From a virus: DNA of 64,000 nucleotides. The position numbers and the translations under genes are program-made. Below, piece by piece: positions 2-21,241 of this stretch (positions within the stretch are counted from its first letter, which is position 1; each line of letters begins with the position of its first letter). Location of the stretch: positions 2,818 to 66,817 of IMG/VR virus record IMGVR_UViG_3300020195_000027, one strand, 5' to 3'. The notes beneath the pieces are model-generated. The model made no database searches and was not told where the DNA came from. It saw only the letters and a list, made by a program, of their open reading frames with translations.

Positions 2-3000
2 CAAGGCGCACGACTCGGCGGCGCAATTGAAACCGATAAGAAGCTTTCTAAAGACCAGATCACCAGACTGCAACGATCATTTGAGCAGGACTTCACAGGC
101 CGCCAAAACCATCACAGGACGCTCATTCTTCCAGAGGGCATGAAGTATCGGACCATCGAACAAAACCCCGGTGAAACGTCTCTAATTGAGTTTAACAAGC
201 AAAATAGAGAGCCAGTGTTATCAGCTTATGGACTTCCCCCGATCAAGGCCGGAATATTAGACGGGGCATCATTCGCCAATGCGCTAACTCAAGAGAAATC
301 CTATTACCAAGATACTATTAAACCACTCTTAGAAATATTACAGCAATCCCTGAATCTATCAGAGAACCTAATCGCAGCAGACAGAAAAATCAGAATCAGA
401 TTCGACATGTCTGGGGTCGAAGCACTACAAGAAAACGAAACAGAAAAATCCTCAACAGCAGCGTCAAAACTTTCTTCTGGAATGACAATCAATGAAGTTC
501 GAAGAGAGGTGTGGGGCCTACCCCCGGTTGATGGTGGCGACCGACTTCATCCGTCCCTATCGGCTCCAGAACCTCCTCCCATGCTTCCAATGCCACCACC
601 TCCTGACACGTCGGGTAAAGGGATAGGCGTAAGCAGTTCCAAAGAAATAATGGACATAGTTAAGGCATTTATCAAGGGTGACATTACGCTAGATGCGGCG
701 GTGATGATTCTTGGACAAGCTTGCGGCATTGACCAAGCGGCTGCATATTCTATGTTGGGCCACAAAGAAAAAATTAACATTCCACAGAACACTACTCCAT
801 CGGACGTTGTGCCAACTACGGACACATTCGAGGCTAGGGTTGCACAGTTGATTTCAATCATGGTTCAAGATGGGGTTGAGGTTGCGGTAGCTACTAGGGC
901 AGCAATTGAGCGCGCTATACTTGAGGGATTTGTCCCATCGGCTCCTATTGAAACCGTTGGAGACGACGGGGATAAAGACGGGGAATGGAATCCAGTTGCC
1001 GTTGGCGATAACGTGGTTAAGCCTCCAAGGCTTCCATCTTATGATGATGAGGATGATTCAGATTTAAAACAATCCGAGATCCCAGAACGATATGCGCCAA
1101 TTAACTTTGAGCCAAGCGACGAAATATCCAAGGAAGCAAGCCAAGGGCTAACTTGGGCTGGTGAGTATTCATTGGGAACAGAATCCCAAAAAGCCAGGGC
1201 CACGAAACTAAAAGATAAAGCAATGATGACTCCACAATCCATTAAGACAATGGCTTCTTTCTTTTCTCGCAATGATGAGAACAGAGGATATGAGGAGGAT
1301 GACAAGCCAAAACCAGGCGAAATTTTATGGAAACTGTATGGCGGGGATTCGGGTCAAGCGTGGGCTAATGAAACCTACGAGTCCATGCTGGTAATAGATG
1401 ACGAGGAAATCAAAAGTCTTAAGACCGAGATCCCGTACACAAAAGAGTTTCTTGATACATATAGAAAAGGTCTAACCGAGGAAAATATTAAGGACATACT
1501 TGAACTACGAGAGGAAGAGGTTGTTTCTTTCTTTGAGAGAGTGTCCAAGCTATTCCTAGACCAAGCAAGAAAACACTTTAGACTTAAAGGTGGCAAATAC
1601 ATAATCAAAGCCGAAGAGAGTCCTTTTGATGCGGAAAAAATCAATAAGTTTATTGAAGAGGAAGCCAAGAGAAATCCAATCGCATTAAGACGGGCGCATG
1701 ATCTTGGATATGATAACACATTAGAAAAATATCCAATAGATATTGACGAAAAGAAAACAACGGCAGCTTTGAAGAATTTAGCCAGATTAAGCATCCTCTC
1801 TGTTGTGGCGACTACAGAAGACGACGTTACCCGAATGATATTTTTAGGAACATCAGAAGGCGACTCCGCAGGAAAGATGAGAGAAAGACTTACCGAATAT
1901 TTTCAGGGAAGCAAAACCCTTTCAAGAATCCAAACAATAGTAAGAACAGAATCATTAATGTCGGTGTCGTTAGGGCAGGACTTAAAAACACAATCACTTA
2001 AAAAAGAATACCCAGAATTGGCGACCAAACTTAGAAAGGTTTGGATTACCGCTCAGGATGAAAGAGTCAGAGGAAATCCTGGTGGAATATATCCCGACTC
2101 AGAATTTAACCATTTCGTTTTAGACGGCGTTGTCATTGACGAAACAAAGAGATTCCCAAGTGGCTTAAGGTATCCAAGAGATCCTGGTGGAAAAGCTGGT
2201 AATATTATTAACTGCTTTCTTCCTGGCACTGAGGTCTCAGGAATATTTATAGCAGGGGTCAAATCTGATTACACTGGACCTGCCATCGAGATAAAGACCG
2301 AGTCTGGAAGGAAACTTAGGGTCACGACCAATCACAAAATACTTACCAAAAGAGGTTGGCTTGCCGCCAAAGATATTAATGGATTTGATGAGGTTATTTC
2401 TTACAAAACCCCAATCGACTCCGCTCTTGTGGTAGGAGAGATCAACAAAGATAATAAACCATCCCTGGTCGAGAATGTATTTAAGTCTCTTCTTATAGAT
2501 GGGGAATCTTTGCGTAGGGATTTGAGAGCCAATGATCTCAATGGCGATTCTGAGTTTATCAATGGAAGCGTCAATGTTGTAATTTCCAATAGCCTTTTGT
2601 TCAGTGACGGTAAATCCGTTGTTCGTCAAAAAATTAATGATACTATCCTCAAACAAAAACTTATGAGTCTTTCTAATTTGTCTGGTTTTAGCTCTAGCAA
2701 TTTTAGTGGAGACAAGATCGACCTGCCCGCGCCTAGCGTTCCAGGCAGAAGAGCATTGTTGAATGACTCTCTTTCTATCGTGTTTGATTCTGGACCACTT
2801 CAAGGACTCGGATTCAGAAGAACCTCGCTGTTGGAATCCAAGTTTATTGAAGTGTCGGACGATAGAAATCCTGCTGATCCCGTATTTATTCGAGAGTTCG
2901 TTAACAGAGAATCCGATTTTATGTTCTTCGATAAGGTCATTGAAATTAATCTTTTTGACTATTGCGGCCATGTGTACGATCTCCAATCTCTAAGTGGTTG

Positions 3001-4129
3001 TTTAATGTCTGATGGCGTATTAACGCATAATTGTCGATGCACACATCTTGTTTTCGTATCAGAGGATGAGGATGACGTATTGGATAGTCTAGGAAGATCA
3101 CCAGCTAAAGGTGGTCCAGGAAGCGGTTGCAGGGGTCCAAGCTGCGGAAGACCTCGCGGATCGGGAAGCGGGGATAAAATAGAAGAGGTATTGGAAGCCG
3201 TTGGCGCACCAAATCCCAAGGGTGGATCATCACAAGCGGCGTGGCAGTTATGCGATCCGGCTTGTCGCTACACAGAAAAAAGAGCAGCACTACACAATCA
3301 AACTGTAGCCAGAACATTAAGAGATGGAAAAAAGGGAAATCCACCAATAGCTATATTAACGGCTGGTGGCGGTGGGGCTGGTAAATCCACAACCATGCAA
3401 TTAGTTCTTACACAATTTCCTCAAAAATTTGTACATTTGGATTCAGACAAATTCAAAAAAGAATTGCCAGAATATCGTGCGTTGACAAAGGCGAAGAATC
3501 CCAAGGCTGCTTCATTTGTTCACGAAGAGTCCAGCGACCTAGTTGCTAAGGCGTTTAAAGAATCAATTACAAAAAACAAAAACCTAATTTATGATTCTAC
3601 CTTCTCTAATCCAGATAAGGCGACTAACATAATAACCAGACTAAAAAGCGAAGGATATAAAGTTCACCTTGTTTATACTGATGTGCCAGCTGCCACGGCA
3701 ATTGAACGGGCGGCTGGTAGAGCAAATAGAAGCGGTCGGTCTGTTCCTTTGGACGTGCTTAAAAAAGCTCACGCTGGAGCTATCCTCACGCTTAATAAGG
3801 TTAACTCTTTACCAGATACCGTTACGGTTTTTTCCAACATTGGAAAGACACCTAAAATTGCGTATCAAAGACTTGGTCCATCCGAGACAGTTATCAATAA
3901 TCTACTTCTAAACGAAATGAAAGTTAGGGGCCACTCAATCAAAGCTCTTGGAAACAATGAGGATGTATTCGAGATCGATCCTTTATTCATGGAGTTTATG
4001 AATACTTGGTATGAAACCGAAGTCCAAGAGGATGACGACATACTTGATGTTTATGACGAGGGTGTGGACATTGACCAGTATCCAGAGGCAAAAGAAAACG
4101 CCGAATCTGGTGAAAAAGGAGAAATTTAA
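2..4129 (+). CDS. Portal-MuF (minor head) fusion polyprotein with intein and C-terminal zeta-toxin-like P-loop kinase; 5' end lies outside the window
   Basis: The frame is open from base 2 (QGARLGGAIETDKKLSKDQITRLQRSF...TLILPEGMKY). It shows an HK97-type portal C-terminal half (AYGLPP..AG, GMTINEVRREVWGLPPVDGGD), MuF motifs (RIQTIVRTE, KVWITAQDERVR, LRYPRDP, IN/CRC) and zeta-like motifs (ILTAGGGGAGKST, LDSDKFK, HEESS, IYDST). Confidence 0.85.
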   Translation, partial: QGARLGGAIETDKKLSKDQITRLQRSFEQDFTGRQNHHRTLILPEGMKYRTIEQNPGETSLIEFNKQNREPVLSAYGLPPIKAGILDGASFANALTQEKSYYQDTIKPLLEILQQSLNLSENLIAADRKIRIRFDMSGVEALQENETEKSSTAASKLSSGMTINEVRREVWGLPPVDGGDRLHPSLSAPEPPPMLPMPPPPDTSGKGIGVSSSKEIMDIVKAFIKGDITLDAAVMILGQACGIDQAAAYSMLGHKEKINIPQNTTPSDVVPTTDTFEARVAQLISIMVQDGVEVAVATRAAIERAILEGFVPSAPIETVGDDGDKDGEWNPVAVGDNVVKPPRLPSYDDEDDSDLKQSEIPERYAPINFEPSDEISKEASQGLTWAGEYSLGTESQKARATKLKDKAMMTPQSIKTMASFFSRNDENRGYEEDDKPKPGEILWKLYGGDSGQAWANETYESMLVIDDEEIKSLKTEIPYTKEFLDTYRKGLTEENIKDILELREEEVVSFFERVSKLFLDQARKHFRLKGGKYIIKAEESPFDAEKINKFIEEEAKRNPIALRRAHDLGYDNTLEKYPIDIDEKKTTAALKNLARLSILSVVATTEDDVTRMIFLGTSEGDSAGKMRERLTEYFQGSKTLSRIQTIVRTESLMSVSLGQDLKTQSLKKEYPELATKLRKVWITAQDERVRGNPGGIYPDSEFNHFVLDGVVIDETKRFPSGLRYPRDPGGKAGNIINCFLPGTEVSGIFIAGVKSDYTGPAIEIKTESGRKLRVTTNHKILTKRGWLAAKDINGFDEVISYKTPIDSALVVGEINKDNKPSLVENVFKSLLIDGESLRRDLRANDLNGDSEFINGSVNVVISNSLLFSDGKSVVRQKINDTILKQKLMSLSNLSGFSSSNFSGDKIDLPAPSVPGRRALLNDSLSIVFDSGPLQGLGFRRTSLLESKFIEVSDDRNPADPVFIREFVNRESDFMFFDKVIEINLFDYCGHVYDLQSLSGCLMSDGVLTHNCRCTHLVFVSEDEDDVLDSLGRSPAKGGPGSGCRGPSCGRPRGSGSGDKIEEVLEAVGAPNPKGGSSQAAWQLCDPACRYTEKRAALHNQTVARTLRDGKKGNPPIAILTAGGGGAGKSTTMQLVLTQFPQKFVHLDSDKFKKELPEYRALTKAKNPKAASFVHEESSDLVAKAFKESITKNKNLIYDSTFSNPDKATNIITRLKSEGYKVHLVYTDVPAATAIERAAGRANRSGRSVPLDVLKKAHAGAILTLNKVNSLPDTVTVFSNIGKTPKIAYQRLGPSETVINNLLLNEMKVRGHSIKALGNNEDVFEIDPLFMEFMNTWYETEVQEDDDILDVYDEGVDIDQYPEAKENAESGEKGEI
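2213..3031 (+). mobile_element. Intein (273 aa) inserted in the NCRC motif of the MuF domain
   Basis: It starts CFLPGTEV, has block B LRVTTNHKIL and block F GHVYDLQS, and ends THN followed by +1 Cys. Removing it restores GNIINCRC. Confidence 0.92.
2237..2971 (-). CDS. HTH plus DUF559/Vsr-like PD-(D/E)XK endonuclease encoded antisense inside the intein
   Basis: 244-aa ORF with GGAG 9 nt upstream of the ATG. N-terminal HTH-like segment (FSVNELSNKYGISRISIVRHFNKLG), then FEDSIINFL..NG....EQKAIGNYNIDASIDKLRIAIEIIG...RLKYILDQGWFIIFV, the DUF559/Vsr pattern. Confidence 0.8.
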   Translation of the reverse strand: MAAIVKKINFNDLIEEHKIGFSVNELSNKYGISRISIVRHFNKLGFQQRGSSESESLKWSRIKHDRKRVIQQCSSAWNARRGQVDLVSTKIARAKTRQIRKTHKFLFEDSIINFLTNNGFTVTEQKAIGNYNIDASIDKLRIAIEIIGSQIPTQRFPIYKKRLKYILDQGWFIIFVDLSYHKSGVDWGFVRNNLIKSINIFGGKPTSFGKYFVIGRDPKFPSRLGLYLDGRSSVIRFDPCYKYS

Positions 4130-17096: not shown

Positions 17097-17485
17097 TTAT
17101 GGACCTACAGTTAGATCCAATTAAAGGAAATGCTTTTAATTGCGCGAGCTGTAGTCCTGGTTTACAAAAATTAAGAAATTGCACTGGTGATGGTCCTGCG
17201 GGAAAAAATCTTATCAATGGCAACCACTACCCGCGATGCCCGAGAGCAATGGCAATCGATAGCCCAGAATTTGAGCATATCGTTTGGCTATACGGGGAAT
17301 CAAGGGACCATCACACCTTACCCTTCGGAGAAAGCCCAGGTAATCAAACGGTATTTTCCCAACATTCGTTTGCTTATCTGGACTATTTAGTTGGTAAGCA
17401 CAGAAAGAAACAAGAGGAAGAACACGGTAAAAAAATGGATAAGTTGACGAAACAATCCAAGAATAAGTCTAAGGGGAAAACGTAA
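17093..17485 (+). CDS. Tail assembly chaperone, frameshifted T-like part
   Basis: In the -1 frame relative to the upstream gene; stop abuts the tape measure start; CxxC...C...CP motif. Confidence 0.75.
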   Translation: MIMDLQLDPIKGNAFNCASCSPGLQKLRNCTGDGPAGKNLINGNHYPRCPRAMAIDSPEFEHIVWLYGESRDHHTLPFGESPGNQTVFSQHSFAYLDYLVGKHRKKQEEEHGKKMDKLTKQSKNKSKGKT

Positions 17486-20400
17486 GTGGGAGACGTTCGA
17501 GTCAAGATTGAAGCCGAAGACGATTTAAGCCCAGCGGTTTTGAAAGCCATTGAGTCGCTTAAAAGATTTGAGGCATCCACTAAAAGCGCATTTGGCAATG
17601 TCACAAAAGCGACCGAAAGTGCTGCAAAATCTACACAACAATTAAACGAAAAAATCGAAACCACCCAAGGGTTGTCCGTGGGATTAAAAAAACTAGGAAA
17701 CGAAGCCAAGTCTGTAGAGACCGATTTCGCTTTTTTTGGTGGTGCATCCGTTGGTCTATTCGCTCTGGAAAAGACATTTGGAATTTTAACTATAGCGGTA
17801 CAAAAAACCTCAGCGGCGGCTGCTGCATTTTCAAACAGAGCGGCTGCGATTTCTCCAGATATTGGTAAAGTTGGCGCAGCGTTAAGGGGCACATCCTTAG
17901 ATACTGCGAGCATGATGCGGTTCATGGATGTGGCAAAACAAAGCCTAAATGGATTTGCCGCCTCTGCTTCCCAAGCTATAGCTCAAGGACTTACGCCTCT
18001 TAAAAACGCATTGGGATCAACCGCGGGCGCATTAAAAGCGATAAACACAGTTACCTTACAGGCTACCGCAATGGCAGTGTCTTTAGGCAAGGTCGCGGTT
18101 CAATCTGTTACGTCTTTTGCTAAATACGAAACCGGACTGGCTGGATTAGTATCAAAATTAGGACTAGCATCTGCGGCGACTGGAATTTTGGCAATCCATA
18201 TGCTGAAATCAGATTCTATTATCGGAAAACTTGCAGGGGTGGGATTGCTTGCCCTAACCGCAGCTTTGGGTGGAGCTATATTTCTAATCCAACATGCTTT
18301 GGTTGCTGTCGGGGGGCTGATAGTTGCTTTGGGTACTGGCCTTGTAAACGCAGCAACAGCCCAAATACAATCATTTGAAAAAGCAGAGATTAAAACTTTA
18401 GCGTTTACTCAGACAATCGTAGCGATGGCGGCGAGCGCGGAAGAGGGGTCCAACAGTTTACAAAAATGGAACACATTCCTTGGTGAAATGTCGTCAAAGA
18501 CCGGAGAAACCCAAGCAAATCTTCAGGTAATCACAGCGGAATTTATAGGAGCCACAAAAGCTCTTGGGTTTACCGATGATGTTCAAAAAAGATTAATCAG
18601 TTCGACTGTTGACGTTGCTTCAAAATTCAAATTGAATCTTGTGGACGCTGCTCAACAGGTTTTAGGGGTTATCAATGGGAACTCACAGAGTTTTCTAGCC
18701 CTAAACCTTCACATGAAGGATTCTGAAGTCGGCGCAAGCAAAGCTGGCGGTGCATTTAAGGACACTTTTTCAAAAATGGAGGATGGTAATAAAACTGCCG
18801 TTCGTACCAATGTACTCTTCGAGAAATTAGGCAAGACAGGAACCACAGGATTTGCCATAGCTGCGGCTGATACCTATTCCAGATCACTAGAAATTCAAAA
18901 AAATGCTCAAGACCAACTTAACTCAGAGTTGGGTAGAGGGGCCAGGTTAATCGAAGGGCAAGTAATCTTTGGATTAGCGGAGGCGACTAGGTGGTTTACG
19001 GAAATGACCAAGCCTTTGTTGCCACTTGTGGGGTTCTTAGAGGCATTATTTGGTAGATTATTACAGGGTGTTGGAACAATCGCTCAACACGCAGTTCAGA
19101 TTTCGTTATTGATAGCCGTATATAAAACACTTCAAACAGTTTTGGGGGGAAAGTTCTTTCAAGAATTAATCACAAAACAAATACCGGTGATGAACAAAAG
19201 TTTCGTTCAGCTTGCGTCTCAATTGGGGGCGACTAATGTCAGCTTTAAATCATTAGGAGACGTTGGAAAATCATCACTTCAAATAGTCAAAGCTCAAGCC
19301 GTGGGAGCAATAGGTGGTTTAACGGGAGTCAAGGTTGCTGGTCAGTCTGCAATGAGGGCAATGATGGCGATAACCTCGGCTGCGGCTCCTTGGCTTGCAA
19401 TAGCGGCAGCGGTGTTTATTTTGGTTAAAGCCGTTCAGTTTATTGAAGAGGAAACAGGAATATTCTCAGAAATTTGGGGTCAACTTGTTGGTGTCTTCAA
19501 TGAAACGTCGGCGGCACTGTCTTTTTTAGGCCCGATCTTTCAAAGAATAGCAAATTTATTTCAAGGAGCATTGTCTGGATCTATAAGAATTGTTGCCGGT
19601 TTATTAACCTCCCTAGCTTCTGGCTTTATTGTTTTTGCACTAACCGCCGCCAAAGCTACAAACGCATTAGCTGGACTCGCAGGCAAAACATTAATTGCAA
19701 AGGAAACCATTCAGTCATTAGAGCAAGCGTATTTAAAAACAAACGAAGCCGCTGGAAAATTTGCGGCACAGGGTATAGCAAATGTTGGGAGTGGTATTGC
19801 AGGAACATTCAAAACTGCCGATAGGGCATTGGCTTCAAACCAAGATGCTTGGAAAAACTCCACCGCTGCCGTAACCAAAGCAGTAGAAGAGCAAAAGAAA
19901 AAAGTAGATGAGCTTAAAAAGGTTTTGGGAGCCTTCGGAGGAGTTGGGGGACAAGCAGAATTAACAGCACAACTTCAAATGGTTCAAATAACCGAAGACG
20001 AGAAAAGAAAAATCATTGTTGATGGTCAAAAATCTGGAACTATTGATGCAAAATTAGCTCAAGACGGTTTACTCGCAATAAGAAGAGAATCAATCACAAA
20101 ACAATTAGAACTAGAGGCTGCGTTTGCACAGCAAAAAGCTGATATATTAGCAAAGGATGTTCAATCTGGGGGCGATTCTCCCGAAACAGCACTACAATCT
20201 AAGTTTGCTGCTCAAGCTGCGGCTGAAAGCGCAAATCAAGCAAGGGCAGCGCAATTCAGAGGCCAAGAAATAACCGCACAGCAAGCTCATGACCAAGCAT
20301 TAACAGCACTGGCTGCTCAGGGAATAACTCAGAGGACAGTGATTGAGCAATCATTAATGCAGCAAAGAGCCGACCTATTGGGAATATCAGATGCCGGACT

Positions 20401-21241
20401 CCAGGAAAAATTAGCTCAAGAGGAAGAGAGATTTCAGTTAGAGCTTGAGCAAACAAAGATGCGATCAGAGCAGATTTTACTGACAGATGCCGAAAAGAAA
20501 ACGGCTATAGAAGAGGCTGAGTTAAATCATCAGGCCAACATGGAAACTATTAAGCAGGAAAATCTTGAAAAGGACATACAAAGAAACGAGACGTTAGGAA
20601 ATAATAACGCCGCTTTTATGAAAAGATTAGAATTGTCTCAACGTAAACACGGTGCGGTAATGGGAACTTTAAAAGCAGCTCAGGCTTCCGCAGAATTTGG
20701 AGCATTACAACAAGGGTTAGGCGCAGCATCAGAATTGATGGCATCAGAAAATAAGACGCAGTTCAAAATTGGGAAGGCTGCCGCGACTAGCCAAGCCCTA
20801 ATAAATACCTTTTTAGCTGCAACAGGAGCTTTTGCGTCATTATCTAGTATACCAATTGTTGGCCCATTTTTGGCAATTGCCGCCGCTGCGGCGATAACTG
20901 CAGCCGGTATGCTTCGAGTCAAACAAATTAAAAATACGCCACTTCCTGGCGGTCAGGCCGATGATGGTATGACTGAGATTCCAAAAAGTCTCACCGGAAG
21001 ATCGTTTATTATGGATGGTGGAGAACGCGTTATCAAATCCAGACAAAATAAAGACTTAACAGAAGCATTGTCAAAAATTAATTCTGGGGATTCTAATAAA
21101 ACAAATAACATAAGCATTAATGTTCAGGGTAATGCTACCCAAGACACGGTGCGAGACATAAGAGAAACTATTATTGACGTGATACGTCAAGAGTCTGAGA
21201 GAGGAAAGCCGGTAATTTCTTCTCGTGGGGTGACTGGATGA
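17486..21241 (+). CDS. Tape measure protein
   Basis: 1251 aa, Ala/Gly-rich and helical; N-terminus VRVKIEAEDDLS, C-terminal GERVI motif. Confidence 0.92.
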   Translation: MGDVRVKIEAEDDLSPAVLKAIESLKRFEASTKSAFGNVTKATESAAKSTQQLNEKIETTQGLSVGLKKLGNEAKSVETDFAFFGGASVGLFALEKTFGILTIAVQKTSAAAAAFSNRAAAISPDIGKVGAALRGTSLDTASMMRFMDVAKQSLNGFAASASQAIAQGLTPLKNALGSTAGALKAINTVTLQATAMAVSLGKVAVQSVTSFAKYETGLAGLVSKLGLASAATGILAIHMLKSDSIIGKLAGVGLLALTAALGGAIFLIQHALVAVGGLIVALGTGLVNAATAQIQSFEKAEIKTLAFTQTIVAMAASAEEGSNSLQKWNTFLGEMSSKTGETQANLQVITAEFIGATKALGFTDDVQKRLISSTVDVASKFKLNLVDAAQQVLGVINGNSQSFLALNLHMKDSEVGASKAGGAFKDTFSKMEDGNKTAVRTNVLFEKLGKTGTTGFAIAAADTYSRSLEIQKNAQDQLNSELGRGARLIEGQVIFGLAEATRWFTEMTKPLLPLVGFLEALFGRLLQGVGTIAQHAVQISLLIAVYKTLQTVLGGKFFQELITKQIPVMNKSFVQLASQLGATNVSFKSLGDVGKSSLQIVKAQAVGAIGGLTGVKVAGQSAMRAMMAITSAAAPWLAIAAAVFILVKAVQFIEEETGIFSEIWGQLVGVFNETSAALSFLGPIFQRIANLFQGALSGSIRIVAGLLTSLASGFIVFALTAAKATNALAGLAGKTLIAKETIQSLEQAYLKTNEAAGKFAAQGIANVGSGIAGTFKTADRALASNQDAWKNSTAAVTKAVEEQKKKVDELKKVLGAFGGVGGQAELTAQLQMVQITEDEKRKIIVDGQKSGTIDAKLAQDGLLAIRRESITKQLELEAAFAQQKADILAKDVQSGGDSPETALQSKFAAQAAAESANQARAAQFRGQEITAQQAHDQALTALAAQGITQRTVIEQSLMQQRADLLGISDAGLQEKLAQEEERFQLELEQTKMRSEQILLTDAEKKTAIEEAELNHQANMETIKQENLEKDIQRNETLGNNNAAFMKRLELSQRKHGAVMGTLKAAQASAEFGALQQGLGAASELMASENKTQFKIGKAAATSQALINTFLAATGAFASLSSIPIVGPFLAIAAAAAITAAGMLRVKQIKNTPLPGGQADDGMTEIPKSLTGRSFIMDGGERVIKSRQNKDLTEALSKINSGDSNKTNNISINVQGNATQDTVRDIRETIIDVIRQESERGKPVISSRGVTG

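Follow-up and report, generated by a model that had tools for sequence, protein, structure and literature searches.

Canonical bifunctional inteins carry an in-frame LAGLIDADG or HNH domain between their Hint lobes and occupy a conserved site of an essential gene. LAGLIDADG endonucleases encoded anti-sense to an intein are reportedly present in Synechocystis DnaX and in a Chloroflexus SpoVR-like protein, observations credited to Gorbalenya 1998 and Gogarten et al. 2002 in the text of a recent preprint. That preprint counts 712 of 784 actinophage inteins as canonical and describes 63 non-canonical ones, including inteins with anti-sense VSR-like and LAGLIDADG endonucleases, some of them in minor capsid proteins (Gosselin, Arsenault and Gogarten, bioRxiv 10.1101/2025.01.02.630785). 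The same text gives an HHpred match of the anti-sense VSR-like endonuclease to 3R3P, proposes that a free-standing endonuclease gene invaded the intein, and cites older reports of anti-sense LAGLIDADG endonucleases in inteins. Here we describe a related element in a 64,000-nucleotide stretch (the window) of IMG/VR virus record IMGVR_UViG_3300020195_000027. A 273-residue intein on the plus strand (2213-3031) is overlapped on the minus strand by a 244-codon open reading frame (ORF; 2237-2971) that is predicted to encode a helix-turn-helix (HTH) module and a Vsr-like nuclease. The element is probably a mobile intein with its homing-endonuclease gene on the antisense strand, for which we infer expression, cleavage, homing and splicing.

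In several respects, the locus resembles the actinophage anti-sense VSR-like inteins: the intein is contiguous, the host protein is of the minor capsid/MuF type, and the antisense ORF is Vsr-like and matches 3R3P. Furthermore, tblastn matches to the antisense protein include Gordonia and Rhodococcus phages; one of the phages matched, REQ3, is named in the preprint with a minor-capsid intein. The layout itself is not new, and the window is a further example of it; the preliminary description had taken an intein with an antisense nuclease to be an undescribed architecture, a claim that has to be given up, as the preprint already reports it for actinophage minor capsid inteins. Unlike the actinophage system, the window belongs to a virus of ~40% G+C, the host protein is a portal-MuF-kinase fusion, and relatives reach phages of Pseudomonas, Vibrio, Salmonella, Escherichia, Haemophilus and Idiomarinaceae. 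The antisense ORF of the window begins inside intein block F and ends opposite sense residue 10. In the main text of the preprint, terms for start codon, ribosome site and promoter are absent, and 'purifying' occurs once, in a general remark. What the window adds to that description is a spread far beyond actinophages, codon-level evidence for the selected frame, start signals in block F, and a doubly constrained stretch of ~40 codons. The layout reported for actinophages thus also occurs in a low-G+C microbial-mat virus and in phages of many Proteobacteria.

Two further systems share parts of this organization. In the 'fractured genes' found mainly in phage DNA, a Vsr-like endonuclease gene lies between the halves of a split intein (Dassa et al. 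2009, PMC2677866), and Taylor et al. 2011 (PMC3239194) characterised I-Bth0305I (PDB 3r3p), the prototype enzyme for which the EDxHD family of homing endonucleases was defined. As in the fractured genes, the window places a Vsr-like endonuclease gene between the N- and C-terminal parts of an intein; unlike them, where two ORFs and a separate endonuclease gene overlap by 6-69 bp, its sense ORF is continuous and ~730 bp are double-coded. The words antisense, reverse strand and complementary strand are absent from the text of Dassa et al. 2009. A fractured gene with a split intein is ruled out for the window, where the sense ORF (2-4129) is continuous, as it is in all 52 related loci. Like I-Bth0305I, the antisense protein combines an N-terminal DNA-binding region with a C-terminal Vsr-like domain, and I-Bth0305I is its best or second-best structural match; unlike I-Bth0305I, which is encoded on the sense strand of a group I intron and has the residues E-D-x-H-D, the antisense family keeps E, D and E without a conserved His. 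Membership of the EDxHD family in the strict sense is thereby rejected, the Vsr-like domain being present but no His occurring among the columns that are invariant or at least 90% conserved in 36 family members, and the antisense family is placed in the wider Vsr/DUF559-like group. The anti-sense LAGLIDADG inteins (DnaX, SpoVR-like) likewise have an endonuclease frame opposite the intein strand, but differ in nuclease family and host genes. As in canonical bifunctional inteins, the Hint domain is interrupted between its lobes by a mobility function at a conserved insertion site; there the nuclease is a domain of the polypeptide, whereas here it is a separate predicted product of the other strand.

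The intein and its antisense reading frame

The intein lies in frame within the plus-strand frame 2-4129, a single uninterrupted ORF for the portal-MuF-kinase fusion. Its N-terminal residue is Cys1 (2213-2215), block B comprises T38, N40 and H41 in VTTNHKILT (TNH being residues 39-41), block F reads GHVYDLQ (residues 252-258), and the C-terminus is THN, followed by Cys-Arg-Cys (CRC) as extein. Among 25 aligned sense inteins, Cys1 (25/25), H41, G252, G262 and N273 are invariant. The Pfam model Intein_splicing (PF14890) scores the intein at 42 bits (cut-off 35.8), and no other Pfam family matched it. We take the Hint domain to be of the class-1 type (Cys1 ... His-Asn/Cys+1).

In the AlphaFold model of the sense polypeptide, built with the 25 sense inteins, both Hint lobes are predicted with confidence. 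The N-terminal lobe (residues 1-66, blocks A and B; 2213-2410, plus strand) has block means of pLDDT, AlphaFold's predicted score for the local distance difference test, of 84-95 over residues 1-60 and 67 over residues 61-70, and the C-terminal lobe (residues 235-273, blocks F and G; 2915-3031, plus strand) has block means of 87-96 over residues 241-273. Between the lobes, the block means are 82 (81-90), 73 (91-100) and 49-56 (101-130); residues 81-100 are modelled with moderate confidence as a helix (86-96) followed by a strand, and residues 127-222 have a pLDDT below 50. Judging from this model, residues ~124-234, which join the two lobes, are probably disordered. Foldseek returns intein splicing domains as the top matches, for example 2imz, with the Mtu RecA mini-intein among the top. 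The sense product had been expected to be a Hint domain with an unstructured centre; the lobes and residues 127-222 agree with that expectation, and residues 81-100, modelled with moderate confidence, do not.

On the minus strand, positions 2971 to 2240 translate into 244 residues without a stop, and the stop codon extends the ORF to 2237. Antisense residue j faces sense residue 254-j, so that the two frames are in exact codon-for-codon register, and the antisense ORF extends back to sense residue 10, crossing block B. In this register TTA, CTA and TCA are stops on the opposite strand. The genome encodes 47% of Leu by TTA/CTA and 26% of Ser by TCA; in the overlap, these codons account for 0/25 Leu and 0/28 Ser in the sense frame and for 0/15 Leu and 0/23 Ser in the antisense frame. 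The probability of an open antisense frame is 3.7e-11 when the sense protein and the codon usage of the window are fixed, and that of an open sense frame is 8.8e-8 when the antisense protein is fixed. Of 676 antisense open runs in this register elsewhere in the window, the longest spans 170 codons, and the median length is 11 codons. Double coding at 2237-2971 is far beyond chance in the window.

The antisense protein belongs to a large family. When 1.84 billion representatives were scanned in full with HMMER, 1319 relatives emerged at E<=1e-3, 512 of them at E<=1e-10, mostly of 230-300 residues and with aligned N-termini; a word-index protein search, less sensitive than the HMMER scan, gave nothing at E<=1e-3, and a related-locus search seeded by the antisense protein alone gave no relative. 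In a 36-member family alignment, R49, E108, D134, E145, W171 and Y211 are invariant, and the window copy has all six. The AlphaFold model made with the family alignment has a pLDDT of 90.2 and a predicted template-modelling score of 0.73, and is weak only in the last ~25 residues. Specifically, residues 10-43 (2843-2944, minus strand) form a predicted HTH module with helices at 10-19, 23-30 and 34-43; Pfam detects HTH_58 in 14/36 and HTH_7 in 11/36 family members, and VIA-align matches the N-terminus to repressor and resolvase HTH domains (Z ~5). A subgroup of the family (P0005, P0009, P0010, P0020 and others of 285-320 residues; L025, L053) has either a second HTH copy, carried on an N-terminal extension, or an inserted HTH, and its inteins are longer (~313-355 residues), so that the double-coded stretch can grow.

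Residues 102-215 (2327-2668, minus strand) form a predicted Vsr/DUF559-like nuclease domain. By VIA-align, it matches Vsr (1cw0, Z 10.8, 114 residues, root-mean-square deviation 2.7), I-Bth0305I (3r3p, Z 9.6, 93 of 98 residues) and the DUF559 protein 3hrl (Z 9.0), and in Foldseek the I-Bth0305I domain 3r3p comes out on top (target-normalised TM score 0.77). A match of the family profile to 3hrl has E 1.8e-4, with E108, D134 and E145 paired with acidic residues of 3hrl; these three family-invariant residues (2648-2650, 2570-2572 and 2537-2539, minus strand) are candidate catalytic residues. At E<=0.01, Pfam detects MTES_1575 in 24/36 and DUF559 in 16/36 family members. On sequence comparison, the antisense protein is a distant relative of DUF559/MTES_1575 and, by the Pfam gathering threshold, not a member.

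The start signals of the antisense ORF lie within block F. The ATG (2969-2971, minus strand) is formed by the complement of CAT, the codon for His253 of block F, and a GGAG Shine-Dalgarno-like sequence (2981-2984, minus strand), 9 nt upstream of it, by the complement of the CTCC within Leu257-Gln258. A start codon faces the block-F His in 34 of 41 unique loci (ATG in 24, GTG in 10); GGAG or GAGG occurs 8-15 nt upstream in 29/41, and both signals occur jointly in 25/41. Loci without a start at the block-F column have longer antisense ORFs with an N-terminal extension. The block-F His is encoded by CAT and CAC in a ratio of 24:10, compared with 130:202 at the other His positions of these sense ORFs (Fisher p 7.8e-4), a bias that fits selection for ATG. 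The main elements of the preliminary description, namely a MuF intein with intact splicing blocks, a 244-codon antisense ORF in codon register that runs across block B, an HTH and Vsr-fold nuclease on that strand, and a ribosome site and ATG within the reverse complement of block F, are all borne out by these analyses.

Selection on the two frames

The antisense frame is under purifying selection, which is seen over its residues 11-130; the Hint lobes are selected in the sense frame, and ~40 codons are selected in both. Constraint was assessed with column tests on 45 unique related sequences under a pooled codon model. Synonymous codons were redrawn with the residues of one frame fixed, and a column with z<-3 in the other frame was called constrained; the z-scores are relative and are not probabilities. 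Over antisense residues 11-130, 85/118 columns are constrained in the antisense frame and 10/118 in the sense frame. Over antisense residues 131-171 (sense 83-123), the counts are 20/41 and 17/41, and over antisense residues 191-244 they are 17/47 and 32/47, respectively.

Residue and nucleotide variability follow the same division. In the 45 sequences, amino-acid entropy is lower in the antisense frame over antisense 11-190 and approximately equal in the two frames at 141-160, and the most variable nucleotide over antisense 11-190 is mostly the antisense third position; the entropy pattern is reversed at antisense 1-10 and 201-244, opposite the Hint blocks. Invariant antisense Gly, Ser, Arg and Ala columns take all synonymous codons, including both TCN and AGY and both CGN and AGR, and because of this free choice the facing sense residue scatters (S/A/P/T or G/C/S/R). 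Antisense Trp59 is TGG in 42/44 sequences, which gives sense Pro CCA in the same fraction. In four independent close pairs, the centre has 76 antisense-synonymous versus 35 sense-synonymous codon changes, whereas the Hint overlap of the same pairs shows no contrast, each frame having 7 changes that are synonymous and 16 that are not. Codon-position composition is modestly shifted in the expected direction: G+C at third positions exceeds that at first positions in the exteins of 21/25 loci, and the reverse holds for the sense frame of the centre in 21/25, some extein spans in this count including open frame beyond the true gene.

Sense residues 124-234 (2582-2914, plus strand), with low pLDDT and little constraint in the column tests, appear to be a passive shadow of the antisense gene, serving as a read-through linker. 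Sense residues 83-123 (2459-2581, plus strand), opposite the catalytic core of the predicted nuclease, are constrained in both frames. Here Phe90, Leu93, Asp108, His110, Gly111, Asp112 and Ala113 are kept through codons that are antisense-synonymous or antisense-variable: Phe90 is kept in 35/44 sequences although the facing antisense residue varies among E, K and R. Antisense Ala143 is GCC in 43/44 sequences, so that the sense residue is Gly in 44/44. In addition, antisense Arg162 is never CGG and antisense Gly170 is almost never GGG, either of which would place Pro in the predicted sense helix. The view of the entire ~170-residue sense centre as a shadow sequence therefore holds for residues ~124-234 and fails for residues 83-123, which are under selection of their own.

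It is conceivable, although we hold the idea only tentatively, that 2459-2581 is bifunctional, encoding both the core of the antisense nuclease and a structured, independently selected piece of the intein. The nuclease core would be Y131-N-x-D134 ... A-V-E145 ... R162 ... G-W171 in the antisense frame, and the intein piece would be P83-x-x-I-E-D-V-F90-x-A-L93 ... D108-[FL]-H-G111-D112-A in the sense frame, outside the N-terminal Hint lobe as canonically defined. In that case, the intein would have recruited the read-through of the nuclease gene as a working part, which might, for example, help the Hint lobes to meet despite the disordered linker of 110 residues between them. Opposite strands would thus encode two unrelated folds, an outcome unexpected if a free-standing endonuclease gene had simply been inserted into a linker, and the start codon and ribosome site in block F would tie the two functions further.

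At ~730 bp, the overlap ranks, in both length and conservation, among the foremost cases in phage DNA of double coding on sense and antisense strands, and it is almost unannotated. The codon-level map gives testable predictions for a homing endonuclease that is tied to an intein without belonging to its polypeptide, and with the element, the limits of overlapping coding can be studied in a natural setting.

Recurrence, insertion site and competing explanations

The layout recurs in 52 related loci, comprising 47 from IMG/VR, three from GenBank phages and two from bacterial metagenome-assembled genomes. The strand opposite the match is open across the whole match, in register 0, in 52/52 loci, and the sense ORF is continuous in all. 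Each sense translation inspected (50 + 2 loci) is a MuF-type protein with an intein, reading N-C(F/L/Y) at the first junction and N-CRC at the second where the junctions fall inside the locus. The antisense ORF, whose conservation in homologous MuF inteins the preliminary description had named as a check, is intact in 51/52 loci; five of these frames end slightly early, 4-9 residues short of where the tblastn match ends. The one in-frame interruption, in L046 (3001-3633), is a stop at match residue 25, within the HTH, with the sense intein open, and it may reflect a decaying gene or a sequencing error.

By tblastn, the antisense protein matches 51 GenBank phage records at 22-30% identity (Pseudomonas 15, Gordonia 14, Salmonella 5, Escherichia 4, Vibrio 3, and others), with relatives also in Rhodococcus, Haemophilus and Idiomarinaceae phages. 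The match sits under a minor-head, MuF-type or unnamed coding sequence in all 51 records, and none of them has an annotated endonuclease under the match; two carry the annotation 'minor head protein with inserted intein'. In 4/4 records inspected, the match is antisense to the MuF-type coding sequence, and in one of these four, Salmonella phage PK1 (L054), antisense-strand coding sequences are annotated as hypothetical proteins (1420-2229 and 1706-2152). A blastn search of 1500-3600 against phages gave a single 68-bp match. The MuF genes of the Gordonia phages Affeca, Angelicage, Keitabear and Sedona (H50, H55, H69 and H70) match the antisense Vsr-like protein at tblastn E 7e-10 to 1e-4, and the preprint names these phages in a passage on endonuclease VII-like, frame-3 endonucleases (bioRxiv 10.1101/2025.01.02.630785); either these genes carry traces of both endonucleases or the passage concerns another grouping. 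Among 401 genomes of one bacterial order, two have full-length profile matches (G001 and G059), G001 in an intein context, and 46 more have weak matches to the nuclease domain alone. These weak matches are probably distant cellular Vsr/DUF559-like relatives; such cellular matches (L069-L092 among them) lie in short ORFs of ~100-300 residues or in long frames of ~860-2000 residues.

The extein residues NIIN (2201-2212, plus strand) on the N-terminal side and Cys+1-Arg-Cys (3032-3040, plus strand) on the C-terminal side together form the INCRC motif of MuF. The seven nearest N-extein relatives in IMG/VR, one at 41% and six at 32-33% identity, are all intein-free and read INCRC without interruption. 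The insertion point is thus precisely the Asn-Cys junction of a conserved motif, and close relatives have no intein there. No intein-free junction was present in the contigs of two DNA runs across the region, contigs being an assembly product that drops rare variants.

These observations are consistent with the following cycle. Splicing would remove the 273-residue insert from the portal-MuF-kinase protein, the Hint lobes being linked by ~110 residues that merely translate the complement of the opposite-strand gene. The antisense strand would give a separate 244-residue protein composed of an HTH, a helical linker and a Vsr/DUF559-like nuclease of the PD-(D/E)XK type with the triad E108-D134-E145. 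In a mixed infection, this nuclease would most likely cut MuF alleles that lack the intein, at the INCRC-coding site or close to it, and repair from an intein-bearing genome would copy the intein and the nuclease gene together. The preliminary description proposed in addition that the antisense transcript might be made early, and that an active nuclease would in this way stay out of the head protein.

Several observations weigh against this cycle. The window copy scores below the Pfam cut-offs (MTES_1575, 23.2 versus 38.2 bits; DUF559, 14.8 versus 20.6 bits) and departs from near-invariant family residues at Y17H, A54S, R56S and V144I. Its nuclease motif is E-I-I-G without D-G..H. The family consensus is A-V-E-V, and the family as a whole has neither the D-G..H of Vsr/DUF559 nor a conserved His, and hence no EDxHD motif, so that catalysis is only putative. 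The missing ExDG..H, suggested earlier to be a possible sign of decay, is thus a trait of the family (36 aligned members) rather than of this copy. A sigma-70 scan of 1800-3600, whose consensus may not be that of the host, found no promoter-like minus-strand site upstream of the antisense start (three promoter-like sites in total versus 4.0 expected from shuffles), and the antisense ORF opposes ~50 kb of plus-strand genes. No free-standing full-length family member was found among the loci and genomes examined. Finally, some VSR-like intein groups described in the preprint show patterns of vertical inheritance (bioRxiv 10.1101/2025.01.02.630785).

The vertical patterns, the lack of D-G..H and of the EDxHD His, and the strength of the HTH module would suit an antisense protein that is functional but is no site-specific homing nuclease, acting as a DNA-binding regulator or as a nuclease in phage competition that merely resides in the intein. 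We consider this unlikely: E108, D134 and E145, all invariant, fall on acidic residues when aligned with the DUF559 structure 3hrl, the most similar folds belong to a mismatch nickase and to an enzyme proven to be a homing endonuclease, the nuclease gene occurs only inside one intein at one site in 52/52 loci, and the whole element is missing from close extein relatives, a pattern expected of a homing unit.

Two further explanations deny the antisense ORF its primary role. An unexpressed ORF, open and conserved as a by-product of selection on the sense polypeptide or the DNA, would draw on the codon-for-codon register, in which a conserved sense motif yields a conserved antisense motif, and on the tendency of GC-rich genomes to be open in the opposite frame (among 29 weak cellular matches with lengths of 72-135 codons, 14 are open in the same register). 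Such a by-product is very improbable here, given that the window is AT-rich and the openness so far from chance, that antisense constraint greatly exceeds sense constraint over antisense 11-130, that the most variable nucleotide in the centre is the antisense third position, and that the sense residue scatters at invariant antisense columns through antisense-synonymous variation; moreover, it is the sense centre that is predicted to be disordered and the antisense product that is confidently modelled in a known nuclease fold. Nor do we give more than the slightest weight to the converse proposal that the sense centre is itself an endonuclease or another folded domain and the antisense ORF secondary. 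Sense residues 83-123, with their own constraint and a helix and two strands modelled at moderate confidence, speak for it, but Pfam matches in the intein are limited to Intein_splicing, residues 127-222 are modelled with very low confidence, and sense residues 124-243, which face antisense 11-130, are constrained in so few columns. The mobile intein with an antisense homing-endonuclease gene thus remains the explanation that we prefer.

Genome setting

The source record is a 66.8-kb uncultured virus from a microbial-mat metagenome, with an estimated completeness of 84%, and the window is AT-rich (~40% G+C). In ORF 2-4129, Pfam detects a portal domain (PF04860) at the start, Intein_splicing, and a Zeta_toxin/AAA_33 P-loop kinase near the C-terminus (E 1.4e-36). 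Pfam MuF models gave no match to this ORF at E<=1, and the MuF label is given because its relatives are annotated as MuF-like minor capsid or head morphogenesis proteins and because of the NCRC motif.

Within the first 50 kb, only two ORFs of at least 150 residues are on the minus strand, the antisense nuclease ORF and a 180-residue ORF at 17383-17925; all others are on the plus strand. The 180-residue ORF overlaps the start of a 1251-residue plus-strand ORF (17486-21241). It is possibly the 170-codon run that is, apart from the nuclease ORF, the longest open antisense run in this register in the window, or it may be due to chance. In DNA run X1, a 52-letter contig of depth 4 joins 3273-3302 to 3946-3967, skipping 643 bases that include most of the kinase domain. 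Both edges of the 3302/3946 junction share an 8-base word, and the contig could represent a minor deletion variant or an assembly-graph artefact.

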